NCBI RefSeq assembly: GCF_000341395.1
Contig: NC_020304.1
Span: 3,300,001 to 3,332,000 of the forward strand
Direction of reading: 5' to 3'
Origin: Desulfocapsa sulfexigens DSM 10523
Lineage (GTDB): Bacteria > Desulfobacterota > Desulfobulbia > Desulfobulbales > Desulfocapsaceae
DNA length: 32,000 nt
Part shown: in pieces, positions 113 through 5,291 of the stretch
Position numbering within the stretch: position 1 is the stretch's first letter
Layout: every line of letters begins with the position of its first letter
Position numbers and translations under genes: made by a program
Notes under the pieces: generated by a model
Database searches by the model: none
What the model saw: only the letters and a program-made list of their open reading frames with translations
Told to the model about the DNA's origin: nothing

Positions 113-1498
113 GTGCATGTTCCTCTGTTAATTATCGGCGGTGGTCTTTCGGGACTTGCCGCCGCTGTCCGTTTTTCCCGTTTCATTCCAGACGTTCTCC
201 TTCTCGAACAGCACTCCCGTGTTGGTGGGCTCAACTCCTATTACTATAGAAATAACAGACTGTTTGAAACTGGCCTTCATGCAATCACAAACTATGCTGC
301 GCCAAAAGAAAAAAACGCGCCATTAAACCGTCTCCTCAGACAGTTAAAAATAAAACGTAATGAACTCGAACTGCACCAGCAGAATCAAAGTGAAATTCGT
401 TTTTCAGGGCAGGAATCCCTTCTCTTTTCGAATGATTTCTCTCTTCTTGAAACAGAAATTGCCGAGAAATTTCCCGCCAGTTATGATGGATTCCAGCGAC
501 TGTTGCAGCTGATAGATGAATATGACCCATTTAAGCCACTTCCTTTCATATCTGCCAAACAGGTACTTCAGCAGCACCTTCACAATTCACTCCTGACGGA
601 CATGCTACTCTGCCCCCTGATGTACTACGGCTCCTCCATAGAAAATGATATGGATCTTGGCCAATTTGTTATTATGTTCAGGGCAATTTTTCTGGAAGGG
701 ATGTTTCGGCCCGGCGGAACCATCAAGGACCTCCTTGACCTCCTGTTAAGTCATTATAAAAAAAATGGTGGTGAGATCAGAACCCGTGCCAAAGTCTCTA
801 AAATTCTCCAAAATAACAGGAAAGTCCATGGCGTTCTTCTAGATGATGGTGAGGAAATCAGCTGTGATTATCTACTTTCTACCGTTGGCTCAGAAGAAAC
901 CTTTAGCCTTCTTGGAAAATCATCCGGGATTCAATCAATGCCGCGACTTGGCTTCGTTGAAACTATTTTTGAAATAGATCCCTCCACAAACCTGCCGCTT
1001 GCCCATAACCGTACTATAATCTTTTTCAATAATGAAGAGAGGTTCTCCTACCAGCAACCCGATCAACTTGTGGACTACAAATCAGGGGTAATCTGTATGC
1101 CTCAGAACTTCGAGAATCTTCCCTTTTCCACTTTCAGAGAAGTACGAACCACTCATCTCGCCAGATATGAAGATTGGAAAGAGCTTGAAAAGGAAACAAC
1201 TTCATACAAAAAAGCAAAGGATGTAACAGCCCTCACATCCCTTTCCGTCGCTGAGAAAATTCTTGGTAATTTTGGCTCAGATATAGTATATCGTGATACT
1301 TTCACCCCGCTCACTATTGAACGCTTTACTGCCAAAATAAAGGGGGCGATTTACGGCAACCCTATTAAGATAAAAGATGGTGATATTGGTTATGACAATC
1401 TTTACCTGGCTGGAACCGACCAGGGATTTCTCGGTATTATCGGCTCCATGTTAAGCGGGGTATCCATTGTCAATCAGCATATCCTGCCACGCCTGTAG
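113..1498 (+). CDS. NAD(P)/FAD-dependent oxidoreductase, phytoene desaturase (CrtI)-like family
   Basis: 461-aa ORF with a GTG start 3 nt after the ACP stop. It has an N-terminal Rossmann dinucleotide motif (LLIIGGGLSGLAAA...LLLEQHSRVGG) and a C-terminal GTDQG-type motif typical of amine-oxidase/CrtI-fold flavoenzymes. Confidence 0.8.
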   Translation: MHVPLLIIGGGLSGLAAAVRFSRFIPDVLLLEQHSRVGGLNSYYYRNNRLFETGLHAITNYAAPKEKNAPLNRLLRQLKIKRNELELHQQNQSEIRFSGQESLLFSNDFSLLETEIAEKFPASYDGFQRLLQLIDEYDPFKPLPFISAKQVLQQHLHNSLLTDMLLCPLMYYGSSIENDMDLGQFVIMFRAIFLEGMFRPGGTIKDLLDLLLSHYKKNGGEIRTRAKVSKILQNNRKVHGVLLDDGEEISCDYLLSTVGSEETFSLLGKSSGIQSMPRLGFVETIFEIDPSTNLPLAHNRTIIFFNNEERFSYQQPDQLVDYKSGVICMPQNFENLPFSTFREVRTTHLARYEDWKELEKETTSYKKAKDVTALTSLSVAEKILGNFGSDIVYRDTFTPLTIERFTAKIKGAIYGNPIKIKDGDIGYDNLYLAGTDQGFLGIIGSMLSGVSIVNQHILPRL

Positions 1499-1541
1499 TA
1501 AACACTTTCTTTTATAATCTCAGACCCTACAATGTATCATT

Positions 1542-2951
1542 ATGCCTGTTTCTTTCTCTCAAGCCGCTGATAAATATGATGTTGTAATTATTGGTTCCGG
1601 TCTTGGAGGCCTTACTTCCGCTAACCGCCTTGCTTACTGCGGATACAAAGTGCTTCTCCTTGAATACCACAACCAGCTTGGAGGCCTTGCCACCTGGTTC
1701 AAACGTAAGGGACATATCTTTGATGTTTCCCTCCATGGATTCCCCTACGGTATGGTGAAAACCTGTAAAAAGTACTGGAACAGGGAAATAATGAACTCCA
1801 TTGTTCAATTAAAAGACATAATTTTTGACAATCCCCAGTTTCACCTGAAAACTACCTTCGACAGGGTGGATTTCACAGAAAAGCTCAACAGACAATTTAA
1901 AATATCCCAAACGGTTATTGATTCTTTCTTCTCCCGTGTTGCCGGAATGAATTTCTATGATGATCAGTCCATGACAACCAGGGAACTATTCAATGAGTTT
2001 TTCCCTGGACGCAGTGACGTTCACAGGCTGCTGATGGAACCAATCAGTTACGCAAACGGCTCCACTCTTGATGATCCTGCCATTACCTATGGTATTGTTT
2101 TTTCAAACTTTATGAACAAGGGTGTATTTACCTTCGAAGGAGGAACGGACAAACTCATAGCAATGATGACAACCGAGCTTGAAAAAAATGGCGTTACAAT
2201 CTGTACAAATGCTAAGGTTGATCGCATCGTTGTTGAAAAGGGTGTTGTCAGAGGCGTTGAATGTAATGGCAGAATGATCGAAACGGCTTCAGTTGTTTCT
2301 AACTCTGGAATTACGAACACCATTTACAACCTTGCCGACAGAGATGCATTCTCCGATGATTTCATGGAAAAAGCTGATAAAATCCGGGTCAACAATTCGT
2401 CCTGCCAGGTCTATATGGGCATAAAAAAAGATGAGCGAATCAACGACATAGGTGACCTACTCTTCACTTCCACCGCAGAAGAGTTCGATTCATCAGAACT
2501 ACTCGACTTTAAAACAAAATCTAAAACTTTTTCCGTATATTACCCAAAGACCAGACCAGGGCATAACCGCTACACAATAGTTGCCTCAATGAACTCTAAT
2601 TTTGACGACTGGAAAGACTTTACCGATGAGGAGTATGCTCTCGAGAAAGACGCACTCATTGAGCGTACTCTTATTGACTTGAATCGCTATTTTCCCGATG
2701 CCAAAGAAAAAATGGACTGGATAGAGGCTGCGACACCACGAACATTTAACAGATACACCCTGCATACTCACGGAACATCGTTTGGAACCAAATTTGAAGG
2801 TCTCGATGTCTCCAGAAATATTTTCAAAGAGGTAGGTGGACTTTTTCATGTCGGTTCTGTTGGAATTATAATGTCCGGATGGCTGGGTGCTATTAATTAC
2901 GGAGTCATTGTGTCAAATGATGTCGATGCGTATATGCGAAGCCGGGATTAA
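1542..2951 (+). CDS. second NAD(P)/FAD-dependent oxidoreductase, phytoene desaturase (CrtI)-like family
   Basis: 469-aa ORF. The N-terminus reads YDVVIIGSGLGGLTSANRLAYCGYKVLLLEYHNQLGG (GxGxxG followed by an acidic residue at the end of beta2). Its length and layout parallel the preceding paralogue. Confidence 0.8.
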   Translation: MPVSFSQAADKYDVVIIGSGLGGLTSANRLAYCGYKVLLLEYHNQLGGLATWFKRKGHIFDVSLHGFPYGMVKTCKKYWNREIMNSIVQLKDIIFDNPQFHLKTTFDRVDFTEKLNRQFKISQTVIDSFFSRVAGMNFYDDQSMTTRELFNEFFPGRSDVHRLLMEPISYANGSTLDDPAITYGIVFSNFMNKGVFTFEGGTDKLIAMMTTELEKNGVTICTNAKVDRIVVEKGVVRGVECNGRMIETASVVSNSGITNTIYNLADRDAFSDDFMEKADKIRVNNSSCQVYMGIKKDERINDIGDLLFTSTAEEFDSSELLDFKTKSKTFSVYYPKTRPGHNRYTIVASMNSNFDDWKDFTDEEYALEKDALIERTLIDLNRYFPDAKEKMDWIEAATPRTFNRYTLHTHGTSFGTKFEGLDVSRNIFKEVGGLFHVGSVGIIMSGWLGAINYGVIVSNDVDAYMRSRD

Positions 2952-2954
2952 TAA

Positions 2955-3695
2955 ATGATGAATTTTCAAGGACAAAAAGTTGTAGTCAGTGGGGCAAGCC
3001 GCGGAATTGGCAAGGCAATAAGTCTTGAATTTCTCGAACAGGGGGCCACGGTAATAGGAGTATATGCCGGAAACACAGCGGCTGCCCAGTCATTTATATC
3101 CGAATGCGAGCGTTTTGATGGCCGCCTGCAGCTTCACCAATGTAACGTCGCTGATGCTGATCAGGTCGCAAGTTTTTTCAATGCTGTTGAGAAGCAATTT
3201 GATTATATTGATATTCTAATCAATAATGCAGGAATCCGTCGTGATAAATTACTGGCCCTCATGGATCAGAGCAGCTGGCAACAGGTAATCGATATTAACC
3301 TCACCGGCACCTTCAACATGTGCCGCGGTGCAGTACTCCTAATGCTGAAAAAGAAATACGGCCGTATCATCAACATCACCTCCCCTGTTGCAACGCTCGG
3401 CTTTGCCGGACAAACAAACTACGGTGCATCAAAGGCCGGCCAGATTGGTCTTACAAGAAGTTTATCAAAGGAAACAGCACGAAAAAAAATCACCGTCAAC
3501 TGCGTTTCCCCTGGTTTTATTGACACCGAACTCATTGACGATCTCACTCCCGAGCAGGTCAAGGCGTACAAAAAAAGTGTCCCCATGCGAAGATTTGGAA
3601 CAGTTGCTGAAGTTGCAAGCGCTGTACTCTTTTTAGCGTCGAAAGATGCAGCATATATAACTGGGACGGTACTTGATGTTAATGGAGGCCTTTAG
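2955..3695 (+). CDS. fabG: 3-oxoacyl-ACP reductase-like short-chain dehydrogenase (FabG family)
   Basis: 246 aa with classical SDR motifs: GASRGIGKAI (TGxxxGIG), NNAG, and YGASKAG (catalytic YxxxK). The start lies 3 nt after the upstream stop. Confidence 0.88.
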   Translation: MMNFQGQKVVVSGASRGIGKAISLEFLEQGATVIGVYAGNTAAAQSFISECERFDGRLQLHQCNVADADQVASFFNAVEKQFDYIDILINNAGIRRDKLLALMDQSSWQQVIDINLTGTFNMCRGAVLLMLKKKYGRIINITSPVATLGFAGQTNYGASKAGQIGLTRSLSKETARKKITVNCVSPGFIDTELIDDLTPEQVKAYKKSVPMRRFGTVAEVASAVLFLASKDAAYITGTVLDVNGGL

Positions 3696-4140
3696 GCAGG
3701 CAATGCATGACATTAAAATAACAGATCTCATTCCACATCGTCCCCCATTCCTCTGGGTTGACACCATTGTTGAGTTTGCAGATTCGACTCTTATCACCGA
3801 GAAAACGATTTCTGAAAATCTTGAAGTTTTTAAAGGCCATTATCCCGACCATCCTATACTCCCAGGAGTTCTCCTCTGTGAAGGACTCTTTCAGACCGGT
3901 GCTCTTCTTATTGCTCTGCTTCAAAAAGACTCTGGACAAGTTCTTGATGGTGTTCCGGTTTTGACAAGGATTGAAGGTGTTAAATTCAAACGTTCTGTTT
4001 ACCCTGGTAATACCATCTGGATGAAAGTAACCCTCAAAGAAAAGATTGGAGGGGCATGGTTTCTCAAGGGTACTCTACGAGTAAATAATAAAGTCGCTGT
4101 GCAGGCCAATTTTGCCTGTACTTTAGCTCCAACGAAATGA
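3673..4140 (+). CDS. FabZ/FabA-like 3-hydroxyacyl-ACP dehydratase (hotdog fold)
   Basis: Contains LIPHRPPFLWVD and GHYPDHPILPGVLLCE, which match the FabZ signature (PHRxPFLLVD ... GHFPxxPxxPGVL). The track start at 3673 (TTG) overlaps fabG. The ATG at 3703 (MHDIKITDLIPHRPPF), downstream of GGAGG at 3684-3688, is an equally plausible start. Confidence 0.85.
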   Translation: MMLMEAFRQAMHDIKITDLIPHRPPFLWVDTIVEFADSTLITEKTISENLEVFKGHYPDHPILPGVLLCEGLFQTGALLIALLQKDSGQVLDGVPVLTRIEGVKFKRSVYPGNTIWMKVTLKEKIGGAWFLKGTLRVNNKVAVQANFACTLAPTK

Positions 4141-4328
4141 AGACACCACAGGATCTTGAACCCTTATTTGTCTGTATTTTTTGTGAAGAACAACGGGCCG
4201 AACTGCGCGGTCGTTGACACAATGGTACCGTAATCTGCACGGCGTGCGGAATGGAAGTCCCTTTATCATTTTACCAGGAGCAACTAGACAGTCATATACG
4301 GTATTTGTGTAAAATTGCAGAAGATTGA
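4137..4328 (+). CDS. small dual-CXXC zinc-ribbon ORF (63 codons) interrupted by an in-frame TGA at 4215-4217. It may be a selenoprotein, a readthrough product or a pseudogene.
   Basis: The ATG at 4137 overlaps the FabZ-like stop (ATGA). The translation is MKTPQDLEPLFVCIFCEEQRAELRGR-TGA-HNGTVICTACGMEVPLSFYQEQLDSHIRYLCKIAED-TGA. The two CXXC knuckles lie 17 residues apart in the same frame on either side of the TGA. Confidence 0.35.
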
Positions 4329-4353
4329 CCTTTCTGTATAGGTAATATATAAA
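4325..4353 (+). promoter_or_regulatory. candidate sigma70 promoter: TTGACC-N17-TATAAA
   Basis: The -35 TTGACC lies at 4325-4330, followed by a 17-nt spacer and a -10 TATAAA at 4348-4353. The predicted start near 4360 coincides with the first base of the outer helix of the structured element. Confidence 0.45.
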
Positions 4354-4360
4354 ACAACCT

Positions 4361-4532
4361 GATTACCACTAATCCTCAGCCTACCCATTTGAGGAGGTGT
4401 TGTTTCGTGTTGATTATATGGGCATCTGCGGCCTGGACGGCCGCAGCAGAGCCCCCAGGGATGGGTTTATGGCGTCCCATATAATCGACACGGAACAACT
4501 CCGGGTTGCAAAGCTGAGTTTCGATGGTAATC
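4361..4532 (+). ncRNA. candidate structured RNA, structured tolQ leader, or nested-palindrome element; family not recognised
   Basis: Nested complementary segments:
- 4361-4368 GATTACCA pairs with 4525-4532 TGGTAATC.
- 4375-4380 CTCAGC pairs with 4513-4518 GCTGAG.
- 4383-4386 ACCC pairs with 4503-4506 GGGT.
- 4399-4422 pairs with 4476-4499 as a 24-bp helix. Its only two non-Watson-Crick positions are G-U on the + strand.
- An apical GC-rich hairpin runs 4426-4433 / 4439-4446. Confidence 0.35.
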
Positions 4533-4589
4533 AAGTAAAATAAACAATTCTCGTACCTCTCATCTCACATTTTCAAGGAACTGCAAACA

Positions 4590-5291
4590 GTGCAACTCTC
4601 AATTTCAGATATGATCATGCATGCCGGCCCCATGGGCCAGATGGTAATGCTCACCCTGTTGATTTTTTCTCTCACCTCCTGGTCTATTATTTTTATGAAG
4701 ACCAGAATGTATAAAAAGGCCATCAGGGAAACCGATAATTTTCTCGAGGTGTTCTGGTCTTCAAAAACCTTAAATGATGCCAACAATGCAGCAGAGGAAC
4801 ACCCATTAAGTCCAGAAGCTTCTGTTTTTCAGGCAGGGTTTTCCGAACTCCAAAAAATTAATAAAATTCGGAATCGTGAAGAAGGCAGTAACGGTAACGA
4901 GCCTCTTGAAATGCAGCTTGCCACCATGGACAATCTCAAGCGAGCCATCCGAAAGGCAGAGTCACAGGAAATAGCTATTCTCGGAAAATCCCTTCCATTT
5001 CTCGCAACCACAGGATCTGCAACCCCTTTTATCGGTTTGTTTGGTACCGTCTGGGGGATCATGGCATCATTTCATGATATTGGCCTACGTGGGTCGGCAT
5101 CGCTCGCCGTTGTTGCTCCAGGGATATCGGAAGCGCTCGTAGCTACCGCCGCAGGTCTTGCAGTCGCAATTCCTGCAGTTATTGCCTATAATTATTTTTC
5201 CAACCAGCTTGGCGATATTGAGATTGAAATGCAAAATTTTTCAACTGACTTCCTCAATCTGGTAGAAAGAGACCTTCTCAGCAGGGTATAG
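4590..5291 (+). CDS. tolQ: Tol-Pal system proton-channel protein TolQ (MotA/TolQ/ExbB family)
   Basis: 233 aa with three TM segments and the conserved C-terminal LATTGSATPFIGLFGTVWGIM...ALVATAAGL motif. It is followed by tolR-tolA-tolB. The start is GTG at 4590, with ATG at 4608 as an alternative. Confidence 0.9.
   Translation: MQLSISDMIMHAGPMGQMVMLTLLIFSLTSWSIIFMKTRMYKKAIRETDNFLEVFWSSKTLNDANNAAEEHPLSPEASVFQAGFSELQKINKIRNREEGSNGNEPLEMQLATMDNLKRAIRKAESQEIAILGKSLPFLATTGSATPFIGLFGTVWGIMASFHDIGLRGSASLAVVAPGISEALVATAAGLAVAIPAVIAYNYFSNQLGDIEIEMQNFSTDFLNLVERDLLSRV

Follow-up and report, generated by a model that had tools for sequence, protein, structure and literature searches.

A palindromic element in front of tolQ in Desulfocapsa sulfexigens, very probably an IS1595-derived miniature transposable element

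The tol operon of Desulfocapsa sulfexigens DSM 10523 lies in a 32,000-nucleotide stretch of the genome (contig NC_020304.1, positions 3,300,001 to 3,332,000; here called the window, with coordinates counted from its first letter). Between the tolQ promoter and the tolQ start codon there is a segment of nearly 180 bp that can fold into a series of nested helices. Is this segment a regulatory RNA that belongs to the operon, or is it an element that landed there? The evidence assembled below makes it very probable that 4358-4535 is a non-autonomous MITE (miniature inverted-repeat transposable element), derived from the IS1595 family of insertion sequences (IS) and inserted before tolQ, and that it is an ordinary mobile repeat and not a dedicated regulatory RNA. 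This reading is carried by an empty site in a close relative, by dispersed copies with target-site duplications, and by the ends that the element has in common with complete insertion sequences. The features in question are collected in Table 1.

Table 1. The element, its insertion site and the neighbouring genes, in window coordinates
Feature	Position	Strand	Remarks
MITE	4358..4535	+	178 bp, non-coding; missing from contig L081; about 30 full-length copies at unrelated sites; alignment A2
Left terminal inverted repeat, CCTGATTACCACTAATCCTCAGC	4358..4380	+	Matches the ends of the L084, L103 and L143 elements and of ISEc70
Right terminal inverted repeat (GCTGAGTTTCGATGGTAATCAAG on the + strand)	4513..4535	-	Remnant of a transposase C-terminus with its stop codon, AEFRW*
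Palindromic core	4399..4499		24-bp stem 4399-4422/4476-4499, 53-nt apex
Target-site duplication, left copy, TAAAACAA	4350..4357		One T-to-C change; shares 4 nt with the 3' end of the -10 box
Target-site duplication, right copy, TAAAATAA	4536..4543		Perfect pair in L099; single copy in L081
Resident tolQ promoter (putative)	4325..4353	+	-35 TTGACC 4325-4330, 17-nt spacer, -10 TATAAA 4348-4353
tolQ, first gene of tolQ-tolR-tolA-tolB	4590..5291	+	Open reading frame; Pfam context MotA_ExbB/ExbD/TonB_2/TolB
Two flavin adenine dinucleotide (FAD) amine-oxidase-like proteins	113-1498, 1542-2951	+	
FabG-like short-chain dehydrogenase	2955-3695	+	
FabA/ApeI-like hot-dog dehydratase	3673-4140	+	

Structure of the element and its insertion at tolQ

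The nested helices, the 24-bp stem, the asymmetric loop and the apex hairpin that had first drawn attention to the segment are all present, both on direct reading of the sequence and in its predicted fold. The helices are 4360-4368/4525-4533 (TGATTACCA/TGGTAATCA, 9 bp), 4375-4380/4513-4518 (CTCAGC/GCTGAG), 4383-4386/4503-4506 (ACCC/GGGT) and the long helix of the core, which contains two T:G positions and was recovered by an inverted-repeat search of the window. The asymmetric internal loop reads AUUUGAGGAGGU, and the apex of the long stem holds an 8-bp GC hairpin, CTGCGGCC-TGGAC-GGCCGCAG, at 4426-4446. When 4355-4540 is folded with RNAfold, the nested structure is obtained at -87.9 kcal/mol, compared with -54.2 +/- 4.4 kcal/mol for dinucleotide shuffles (z = -7.7; 0 of 200 shuffles were equally good). 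The minus strand gives -90.4 kcal/mol and a z of -10.0. Since it folds as well as the plus strand or slightly better, the nested structure is a property of a DNA palindrome and is not strand-specific.

Where does the element begin and end? Comparison of the flanks among copies sets its true ends at CCTGATTACC...GGTAATCAGG. The outer two helices of the fold are the left terminal repeat paired with the right one; the two 23-nt ends agree at 17 of 23 positions, and their outermost 11 are nearly perfect. The element has no capacity to encode a transposase. The only open reading frames within it, of 48 and 52 amino acids, derive from the palindrome, and an exact look-up found neither of them on record as a called gene.

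The insertion can be read directly from close relatives. Three assembled contigs encode a TolQ protein identical to that of the window: L081, L082 and L083. The first of these has an empty site, which lacks exactly the element and one copy of the 8-bp target; the sequence runs directly from ...TATTATATAAAATGG into AAAATTCTCG..., with a single TAAAATGG at the target. On the two flanks of this site, the DNA of L081 matches the window with 96.8% and 98.5% identity. A further contig, L099, is 96.3% identical over 9.3 kb and carries the same insertion in the same place, bounded by a perfect TAAAATAA/TAAAATAA duplication. The element is therefore present or absent between strains of about 96-98% nucleotide identity, with the window and L099 filled and L081 empty. 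The other two contigs with an identical TolQ protein, L082 and L083, are Logan contigs that do not differ from the window in sequence. Both have their first base at window 4504, within the element and just past the 3' arm of the 24-bp stem; the repeat or palindrome interrupts short-read assembly there, as repeats typically do.

The original prediction had proposed that relatives be compared upstream of tolQ for conservation of the structure. No such conservation was found: in a blastn search of 80 Desulfocapsaceae tolQ loci (L001-L080), the element was upstream of tolQ in none. The sole trace is a weak terminal-repeat-like match in L003, at about 2744-2766, and it lies upstream of the tolQ promoter.

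Other inserts occur in the same leader. In a different Desulfocapsa metagenome-assembled genome (L002, 2774-2956), an unrelated nested-palindrome insert of about 183 bp, with the ends AGGGCCTGAAAAAAATAACATGG.../...CCATGTTATTTTATTACAGGCCCT, likewise lies downstream of the tolQ -10 box and ahead of the start codon. Another extra segment, of roughly 200 nt, is found in the tolQ leader of L013 and L016 (about 2780-2990). Small mobile elements thus seem to have landed repeatedly in the tolQ leader, which is A+T-rich and close to the promoter.

A dispersed family with IS1595-type ends

How widely is the element spread? A degenerate pattern that covers both 23-nt ends, CYTGATTACCAYYRAWMCTCAGC, was scanned over metagenome contigs and matched at least 120 stretches. 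By our own estimate the pattern holds about 40 bits of information, for which chance matches are expected roughly once per 10^12 bases. Among the matches listed, blastn and nhmmer recovered about 30 full-length copies with 90-97% identity at unrelated sites, together with diverged subfamilies at 74-86% identity and many copies that lie at contig ends or are truncated by them. Three contigs (JGI10211J34971_10000026, Ga0136557_1000195 and JGI11705J14877_10000177) have two separate copies each. In nhmmer searches, matches reach about 200 bits in the forward direction but about 50 bits in the reverse; thus, the element has a defined orientation even though it is palindromic. A search for further copies had been suggested at the outset as a means of telling a repeat from a dedicated RNA, with dispersed near-identical copies counting against the latter. 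Such copies are what was found, and of the three options that the original prediction had laid out, it is the third, a palindromic intergenic repeat or MITE, that stands.

The copies behave as mobile repeats with respect to their surroundings. They are intergenic in 29 of 31 cases, and all four configurations of flanking-gene orientation occur. No bias was seen in the orientation of the copies relative to flanking genes, as they lie between convergent, divergent and tandem neighbours and in either orientation; nor do they prefer a promoter-proximal position or co-orientation with the downstream gene. Duplications of 8 bp, scored by script, are perfect at 13 of 28 distinct sites and have at most one mismatch at 21 of the 28. 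The duplicated sequences all differ and are 82% A+T; examples are TTGGGAAA, TTTCTTTA, AAATTTAA and TACCTTAA. The perfect duplications and the 96-97% identity between copies suggest recent activity of the family. A scan of viral contigs with the stem arm gave 0 matches. The contigs that bear copies have a G+C content of 44-48% and tetranucleotide correlations of up to 0.96-0.97, which fits the same or closely related genomes, and many of the copies were sampled together with L099.

From which autonomous element does the family derive? The termini CCTGATTACCAC...GGTAATCAGG also bound insertion sequences of 1.0-1.06 kb among the retrieved loci. Full-length elements with these termini measure 1019 bp (L143, L164) or 1063 bp (L084, L103, L139, L165); L149 holds a further intact transposase of 319 amino acids with the same type of right end and a weak match on the left. 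The element ends, CCTGATTACCAC.../...GATGGTAATCAGG, are identical to the ends of these co-occurring insertion sequences. The open reading frames of the latter encode 258-319 amino acids; those of L143, L149 and L084 match the Pfam domain DDE_Tnp_IS1595 (PF12762, E about 1e-32), and those of 319 amino acids also match Zn_ribbon_IS1595 (PF12760, E about 1e-16). The insertion sequence in L084 is flanked by a perfect 8-bp duplication, TTGTTTTT. The transposase in L103 shows 52-58% identity to transposases on plasmids that carry an IS1595-family annotation (ISPma1, ISEc70 and ISKpn3). ISEc70 in NZ_CP015139.1 has the ends CCTGATTACCAC.../...CTCGATGGTAATCAGG and an 8-bp duplication, ATCCCTTT; its right end reads GCTGAATCTCGATGGTAATCAGG, with GATGGTAATCAGG as the outermost right terminus.

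Both ends of the MITE resemble the right-hand end of such an insertion sequence. In the full-length elements, the last codons of the transposase gene fall within the right repeat (...LAEVQW* or ...LAEDRW*). The right end of the MITE carries the corresponding remnant, and its left end, read as the reverse complement, gives AED*W*. Because both ends carry remnants of the transposase C-terminus, both appear to derive from right-hand ends of the insertion sequence. The similarity to these ends stops after about 27 nt, and nhmmer found no match to the MITE core in any of the IS-bearing loci.

These features suggest how the element may have arisen and moved. Two right-hand ends of an insertion sequence could have been joined head to head around a palindromic core, in a foldback-like manner; on such an origin the whole element would be one long palindrome, with the terminal repeats as its outer helices and the core palindrome as its 24-bp stem. 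A transposase of the IS1595 DDE type would bind the terminal repeats and mobilise the element in trans, and insertion would proceed by a staggered 8-bp cut made by that transposase.

Two further elements with IS1595-type termini and different interiors were encountered. One, of 460 bp (L136, 85-544), retains a remnant of the transposase N-terminus (48% identity by tblastn, residues 4-76); the other, of 231 bp, lies at 1277-1507 of L091. These insertion sequences seem to have given rise to more than one lineage of MITEs. The IS1595-derived MITE family of Desulfocapsa-like bacteria apparently has not been described so far.

The tolQ leader and alternative explanations of the structure

To which DNA does the promoter in front of the element belong? 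The original prediction took TTGACC-N17-TATAAA to drive the element itself. The site is real, and it is its assignment to the element that did not hold. When the regions upstream of tolQ are aligned for Desulfocapsa relatives without the element, GATTGACCTTT-N-TATA(A/C)A proves to be conserved with 17-nt spacing, and TTGACC-N17-TATA(A/C)A is likewise found in the empty-site contig. Judged from these alignments, TTGACC-N17-TATAAA is the conserved tolQ promoter of the target DNA and not a part of the element. A consensus promoter scan did not list it, because its -10 hexamer lacks the usual final T. The element begins 4 nt past the intact -10 box. The predicted transcription start had also been noted to coincide with the onset of complementarity; the coordinates do agree, and they agree because the element was inserted into 8 bp that overlap the -10 box.

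What would the insertion have done to the tol transcript? It appears to have gone into TAAAATAA, a sequence that shares its bases with the last four of the -10 box, at the 3' end of that box, and the duplication would have left the promoter intact on the left side. Transcription should therefore begin within the left terminal repeat and continue through the whole element into tolQRAB. A hairpin of about -88 kcal/mol would form the 5' end of the tolQRAB mRNA, with 55 nt between it and the start codon (GTG at 4590). On the sequence evidence, this hairpin is probably the first part of the tolQRAB mRNA in this lineage. The 5' untranslated region of tolQ would be lengthened by the insertion from about 45 nt at the empty site to about 230 nt at the filled one, if transcription is assumed to start about 7 nt after the -10 box.

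No terminator-like site was found downstream of the element before tolQ, as originally reported: a terminator scan gave none, and the position of tolQ is confirmed by its open reading frame and Pfam context. A hybrid outward promoter, formed from the right end and the duplicated TAAAAT, has no -35 at a suitable spacing, and none appears in the promoter scan. In a predicted fold of 4360-4625, the element is self-contained and the AAGGA ribosome-binding site of tolQ is unpaired. That the element belongs physically to the tolQ 5' leader in this lineage is thus an accident of where it inserted. The hairpin could change mRNA stability or create a site for RNase III, by analogy with Correia and ERIC elements. 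A regulatory consequence for the tol operon can be inferred only, on that analogy, and there is no sign here of selection for it.

Several observations weigh against regarding the segment as an ordinary mobile repeat. Within the 32-kb window, no second copy of the element was found, and tblastn found no IS1595 transposase gene. That the element is multi-copy in this very genome is inferred from metagenome contigs of matching composition. Two more such observations come from the alignment of 30 copies (A2), whose consensus fold has 52 pairs. The core hairpin has been kept by compensatory changes between subfamilies. In addition, a 29-nt loop segment, CCCCCAGGGATGGGTTTATGGCGTCCCAT (window 4450-4478, A2 columns about 101-129), is near-invariant in all 30 copies, even in a subfamily that differs by about 25% elsewhere, and exceeds parts of the terminal repeats in conservation. 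Neutral decay of a selfish repeat would not by itself lead one to expect either of these two observations, and they leave room for functional constraint at the DNA or the RNA level.

It has to be considered, then, that the insertion was co-opted, with the hairpin of the tolQRAB mRNA setting its stability or being processed by RNase III, or, more generally, that the core of the family is a selected structured module. Taken together, these possibilities are unlikely.

The better of the two is that the MITE was retained at tolQ because its 5'-terminal hairpin regulates tolQRAB, through protection of the 5' end or an RNase III site as in Correia elements. Its position just after an intact -10 box would make it the first part of the tol mRNA to be transcribed, and a helix of 24 bp has sufficient length for RNase III. 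In the predicted fold, the ribosome-binding site of tolQ stays free. The insertion is common to the window and L099, whose DNA differs by about 4%, so it must have persisted for some time. There are also precedents: when co-transcribed with genes, Correia hairpins can undergo cleavage by RNase III, and ERIC elements can modulate decay by RNase E (PMC10969869, PMC2649163). However, the element is missing from L081, a relative that is just as close. The two copies at tolQ are 95.6% identical between the window and L099, close to the 96.3% of their flanks, so they give no sign of extra constraint, and the indifference of the other copies to promoters and to the direction of downstream genes is not what a leader function would lead one to expect. 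On balance, co-option at tolQ is improbable.

Could the core itself be the functional part, either as a binding site for a host protein or the transposase or as a structured RNA, with the terminal repeats only as its vehicle? The alignment bears on this. Paired cells make up 96.2% of the total, compared with 92.3% in column shuffles and 25-50% with slid partners. Pairs changed on both sides number 19, compared with 7.7 +/- 1.8 in shuffles, and 17 of the 19 compensatory pairs fall in the long core helix, where they account for 17 of its 27 pairs. The helix of 27 pairs and the apex hairpin have thus been kept between subfamilies about 25% apart, the near-invariant loop segment points the same way, and the core is absent from the full-length insertion sequences. 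However, most of the compensatory signal comes from one split, between five diverged copies and the 25 sequences of the main subfamily, so that the covariation events are few. Within that main subfamily, per-column variability gives no support for extra constraint on the core, as the loop columns are no less variable (0.06-0.07) than the mean (about 0.06). The arms of a palindrome may also co-evolve by intrastrand repair without any selection, and the core shows neither a strand or orientation bias nor a match in Rfam. A selected core module is therefore considered quite improbable, below co-option at tolQ.

The reading first favoured, a dedicated non-coding RNA or a riboswitch-like tol leader with a promoter of its own, fares worse still. 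The fold is statistically exceptional, a promoter-like site lies directly upstream, and on the plus strand the two imperfect positions of the 24-bp helix are G-U and not A-C. These two T:G positions exist; it is the argument for an RNA strand drawn from them that fails. They are the family consensus, with U:G in 19 and 20 of the 30 copies, and departures from consensus in the stems show no strand bias: 22 events are of the G-U type and 17 of the A-C type (p = 0.52), and among singletons alone the figures are 12 and 13. There is no sign of strand-specific selection on the family at the RNA level. The promoter is present in relatives without the element, and the minus strand folds better than the plus strand. 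Neither a stable RNA with paired ends nor a dedicated structured leader finds support in the empty site next to an identical TolQ protein, in the 80 related tolQ loci that lack the element, or in the dozens of dispersed copies in both orientations, some of them between convergent genes. No Rfam family matched: at gathering thresholds there were 0 hits in the whole window, and a search of 4250-4620 at E values up to 10 returned two chance-level hits, of 15 bits (threshold 43) and 12 bits (threshold 146). A dedicated RNA is very improbable.

Finally, a repetitive extragenic palindromic (REP/BIME-type) unit or an IS200/IS605-type palindromic element (PATE), moved as single-stranded DNA by a tyrosine (HUH) transposase, would likewise be a palindrome repeated outside genes whose two strands each form a stable hairpin, but REP units are 20-40 nt long, far shorter than 178 bp, to our knowledge HUH-mobilised elements make no target-site duplications of this kind, and the 8-bp duplications together with termini shared with DDE-type IS1595 elements rule it out for practical purposes.

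Neighbouring genes and comparison with known systems

The genes at 113-4140 form an aryl-polyene-like lipid module upstream of a small open reading frame and tolQ; at the corresponding place, E. coli has ybgC. The small frame, of 63 codons (4137-4328, plus strand), reads MKTPQDLEPLFVCIFCEEQRAELRGR-[TGA]-HNGTVICTACGMEVPLSFYQEQLDSHIRYLCKIAED; the TGA within it, at 4215-4217, is in frame. The small frame opens on the stop codon of the FabA/ApeI-like gene, with which it overlaps (ATGA), and its end lies in the tolQ -35 box. The TGA is kept in 29 of 30 homologues from Desulfocapsaceae loci, the remaining one (L013) having CGA. A CxxC...CxxC pattern is conserved on both sides of it, and protein conservation and third-position variability continue past it, with a coding-like codon-position entropy downstream (0.73/0.72/1.18). 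The Pfam match to Zn_ribbon_Elf1 is weak (E 0.0015, below cut-off). No full-length or Cys-containing homologue was found in the protein database, only 33-amino-acid fragments that end in ...LQGR and stop at the TGA. At a distance of 20 nt past the UGA there is a weak hairpin of 5 bp, which shows no covariation. The TGA at 4215-4217 is a candidate selenocysteine or read-through site in an unannotated small zinc-ribbon-like protein.

Recognition of the segment at 4358-4535 as a MITE has consequences for annotation. A false candidate for a new regulatory RNA is removed, and a MITE family is defined by its consensus, its termini, its 8-bp target and its partner insertion sequences. The family also breaks metagenome assemblies, as in the two contigs that end inside it. 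The filled and empty tolQ alleles provide a natural experiment on a 5'-terminal MITE hairpin placed on an envelope-maintenance operon, and insertions of this kind are commonplace.

How does the element compare with known systems? Its closest counterparts are the insertion sequences of the IS1595 subgroup of ISEc70, ISKpn3 and ISPma1, with which it shares the outermost termini, the 8-bp duplication and a right end that contains the last codons of the transposase with their stop. It differs from them in its length of 178 bp, the lack of a transposase gene, a core unrelated to the interior of the insertion sequences, and two ends that are both of the right-hand type.

Correia elements of Neisseria and ERIC/IRU elements of Enterobacteria are likewise dispersed intergenic MITEs, of 100-180 bp, whose transcripts fold into long hairpins. 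They have other termini and another target duplication, which for Correia is TA, and their parent insertion sequence is different or unknown. Among known systems they are the nearest functional analogues of the tolQ insertion. The likeness at tolQ is one of geometry, with an intact promoter upstream and no terminator before the gene. Prokaryotic MITEs in general typically give stable stem-loop transcripts and have A+T-rich intergenic targets (PMC10969869).

Two further families resemble the tolQ element in format. In QMITE2 of Coxiella burnetii, the direct repeats are 7-9 bp, the terminal repeats 23-29 bp and the core 113-145 bp long, and its transcript is predicted to form one long stem-loop (PMC10969869); by description this is the same architecture, in an unrelated host. 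A MITE of Haloquadratum walsbyi derived from the IS1595 family (related to ISHwa6) is 165 bp long, with inverted repeats of 25 bp and direct repeats of 8 bp (PMC3852290). The tolQ element thus resembles it in a length of about 170 bp, in repeats of about 25 bp, in 8-bp direct repeats and in a parent from the IS1595 family. The host of the latter is an archaeon, however, and the likeness is one of format, with no relatedness implied beyond the level of the family.

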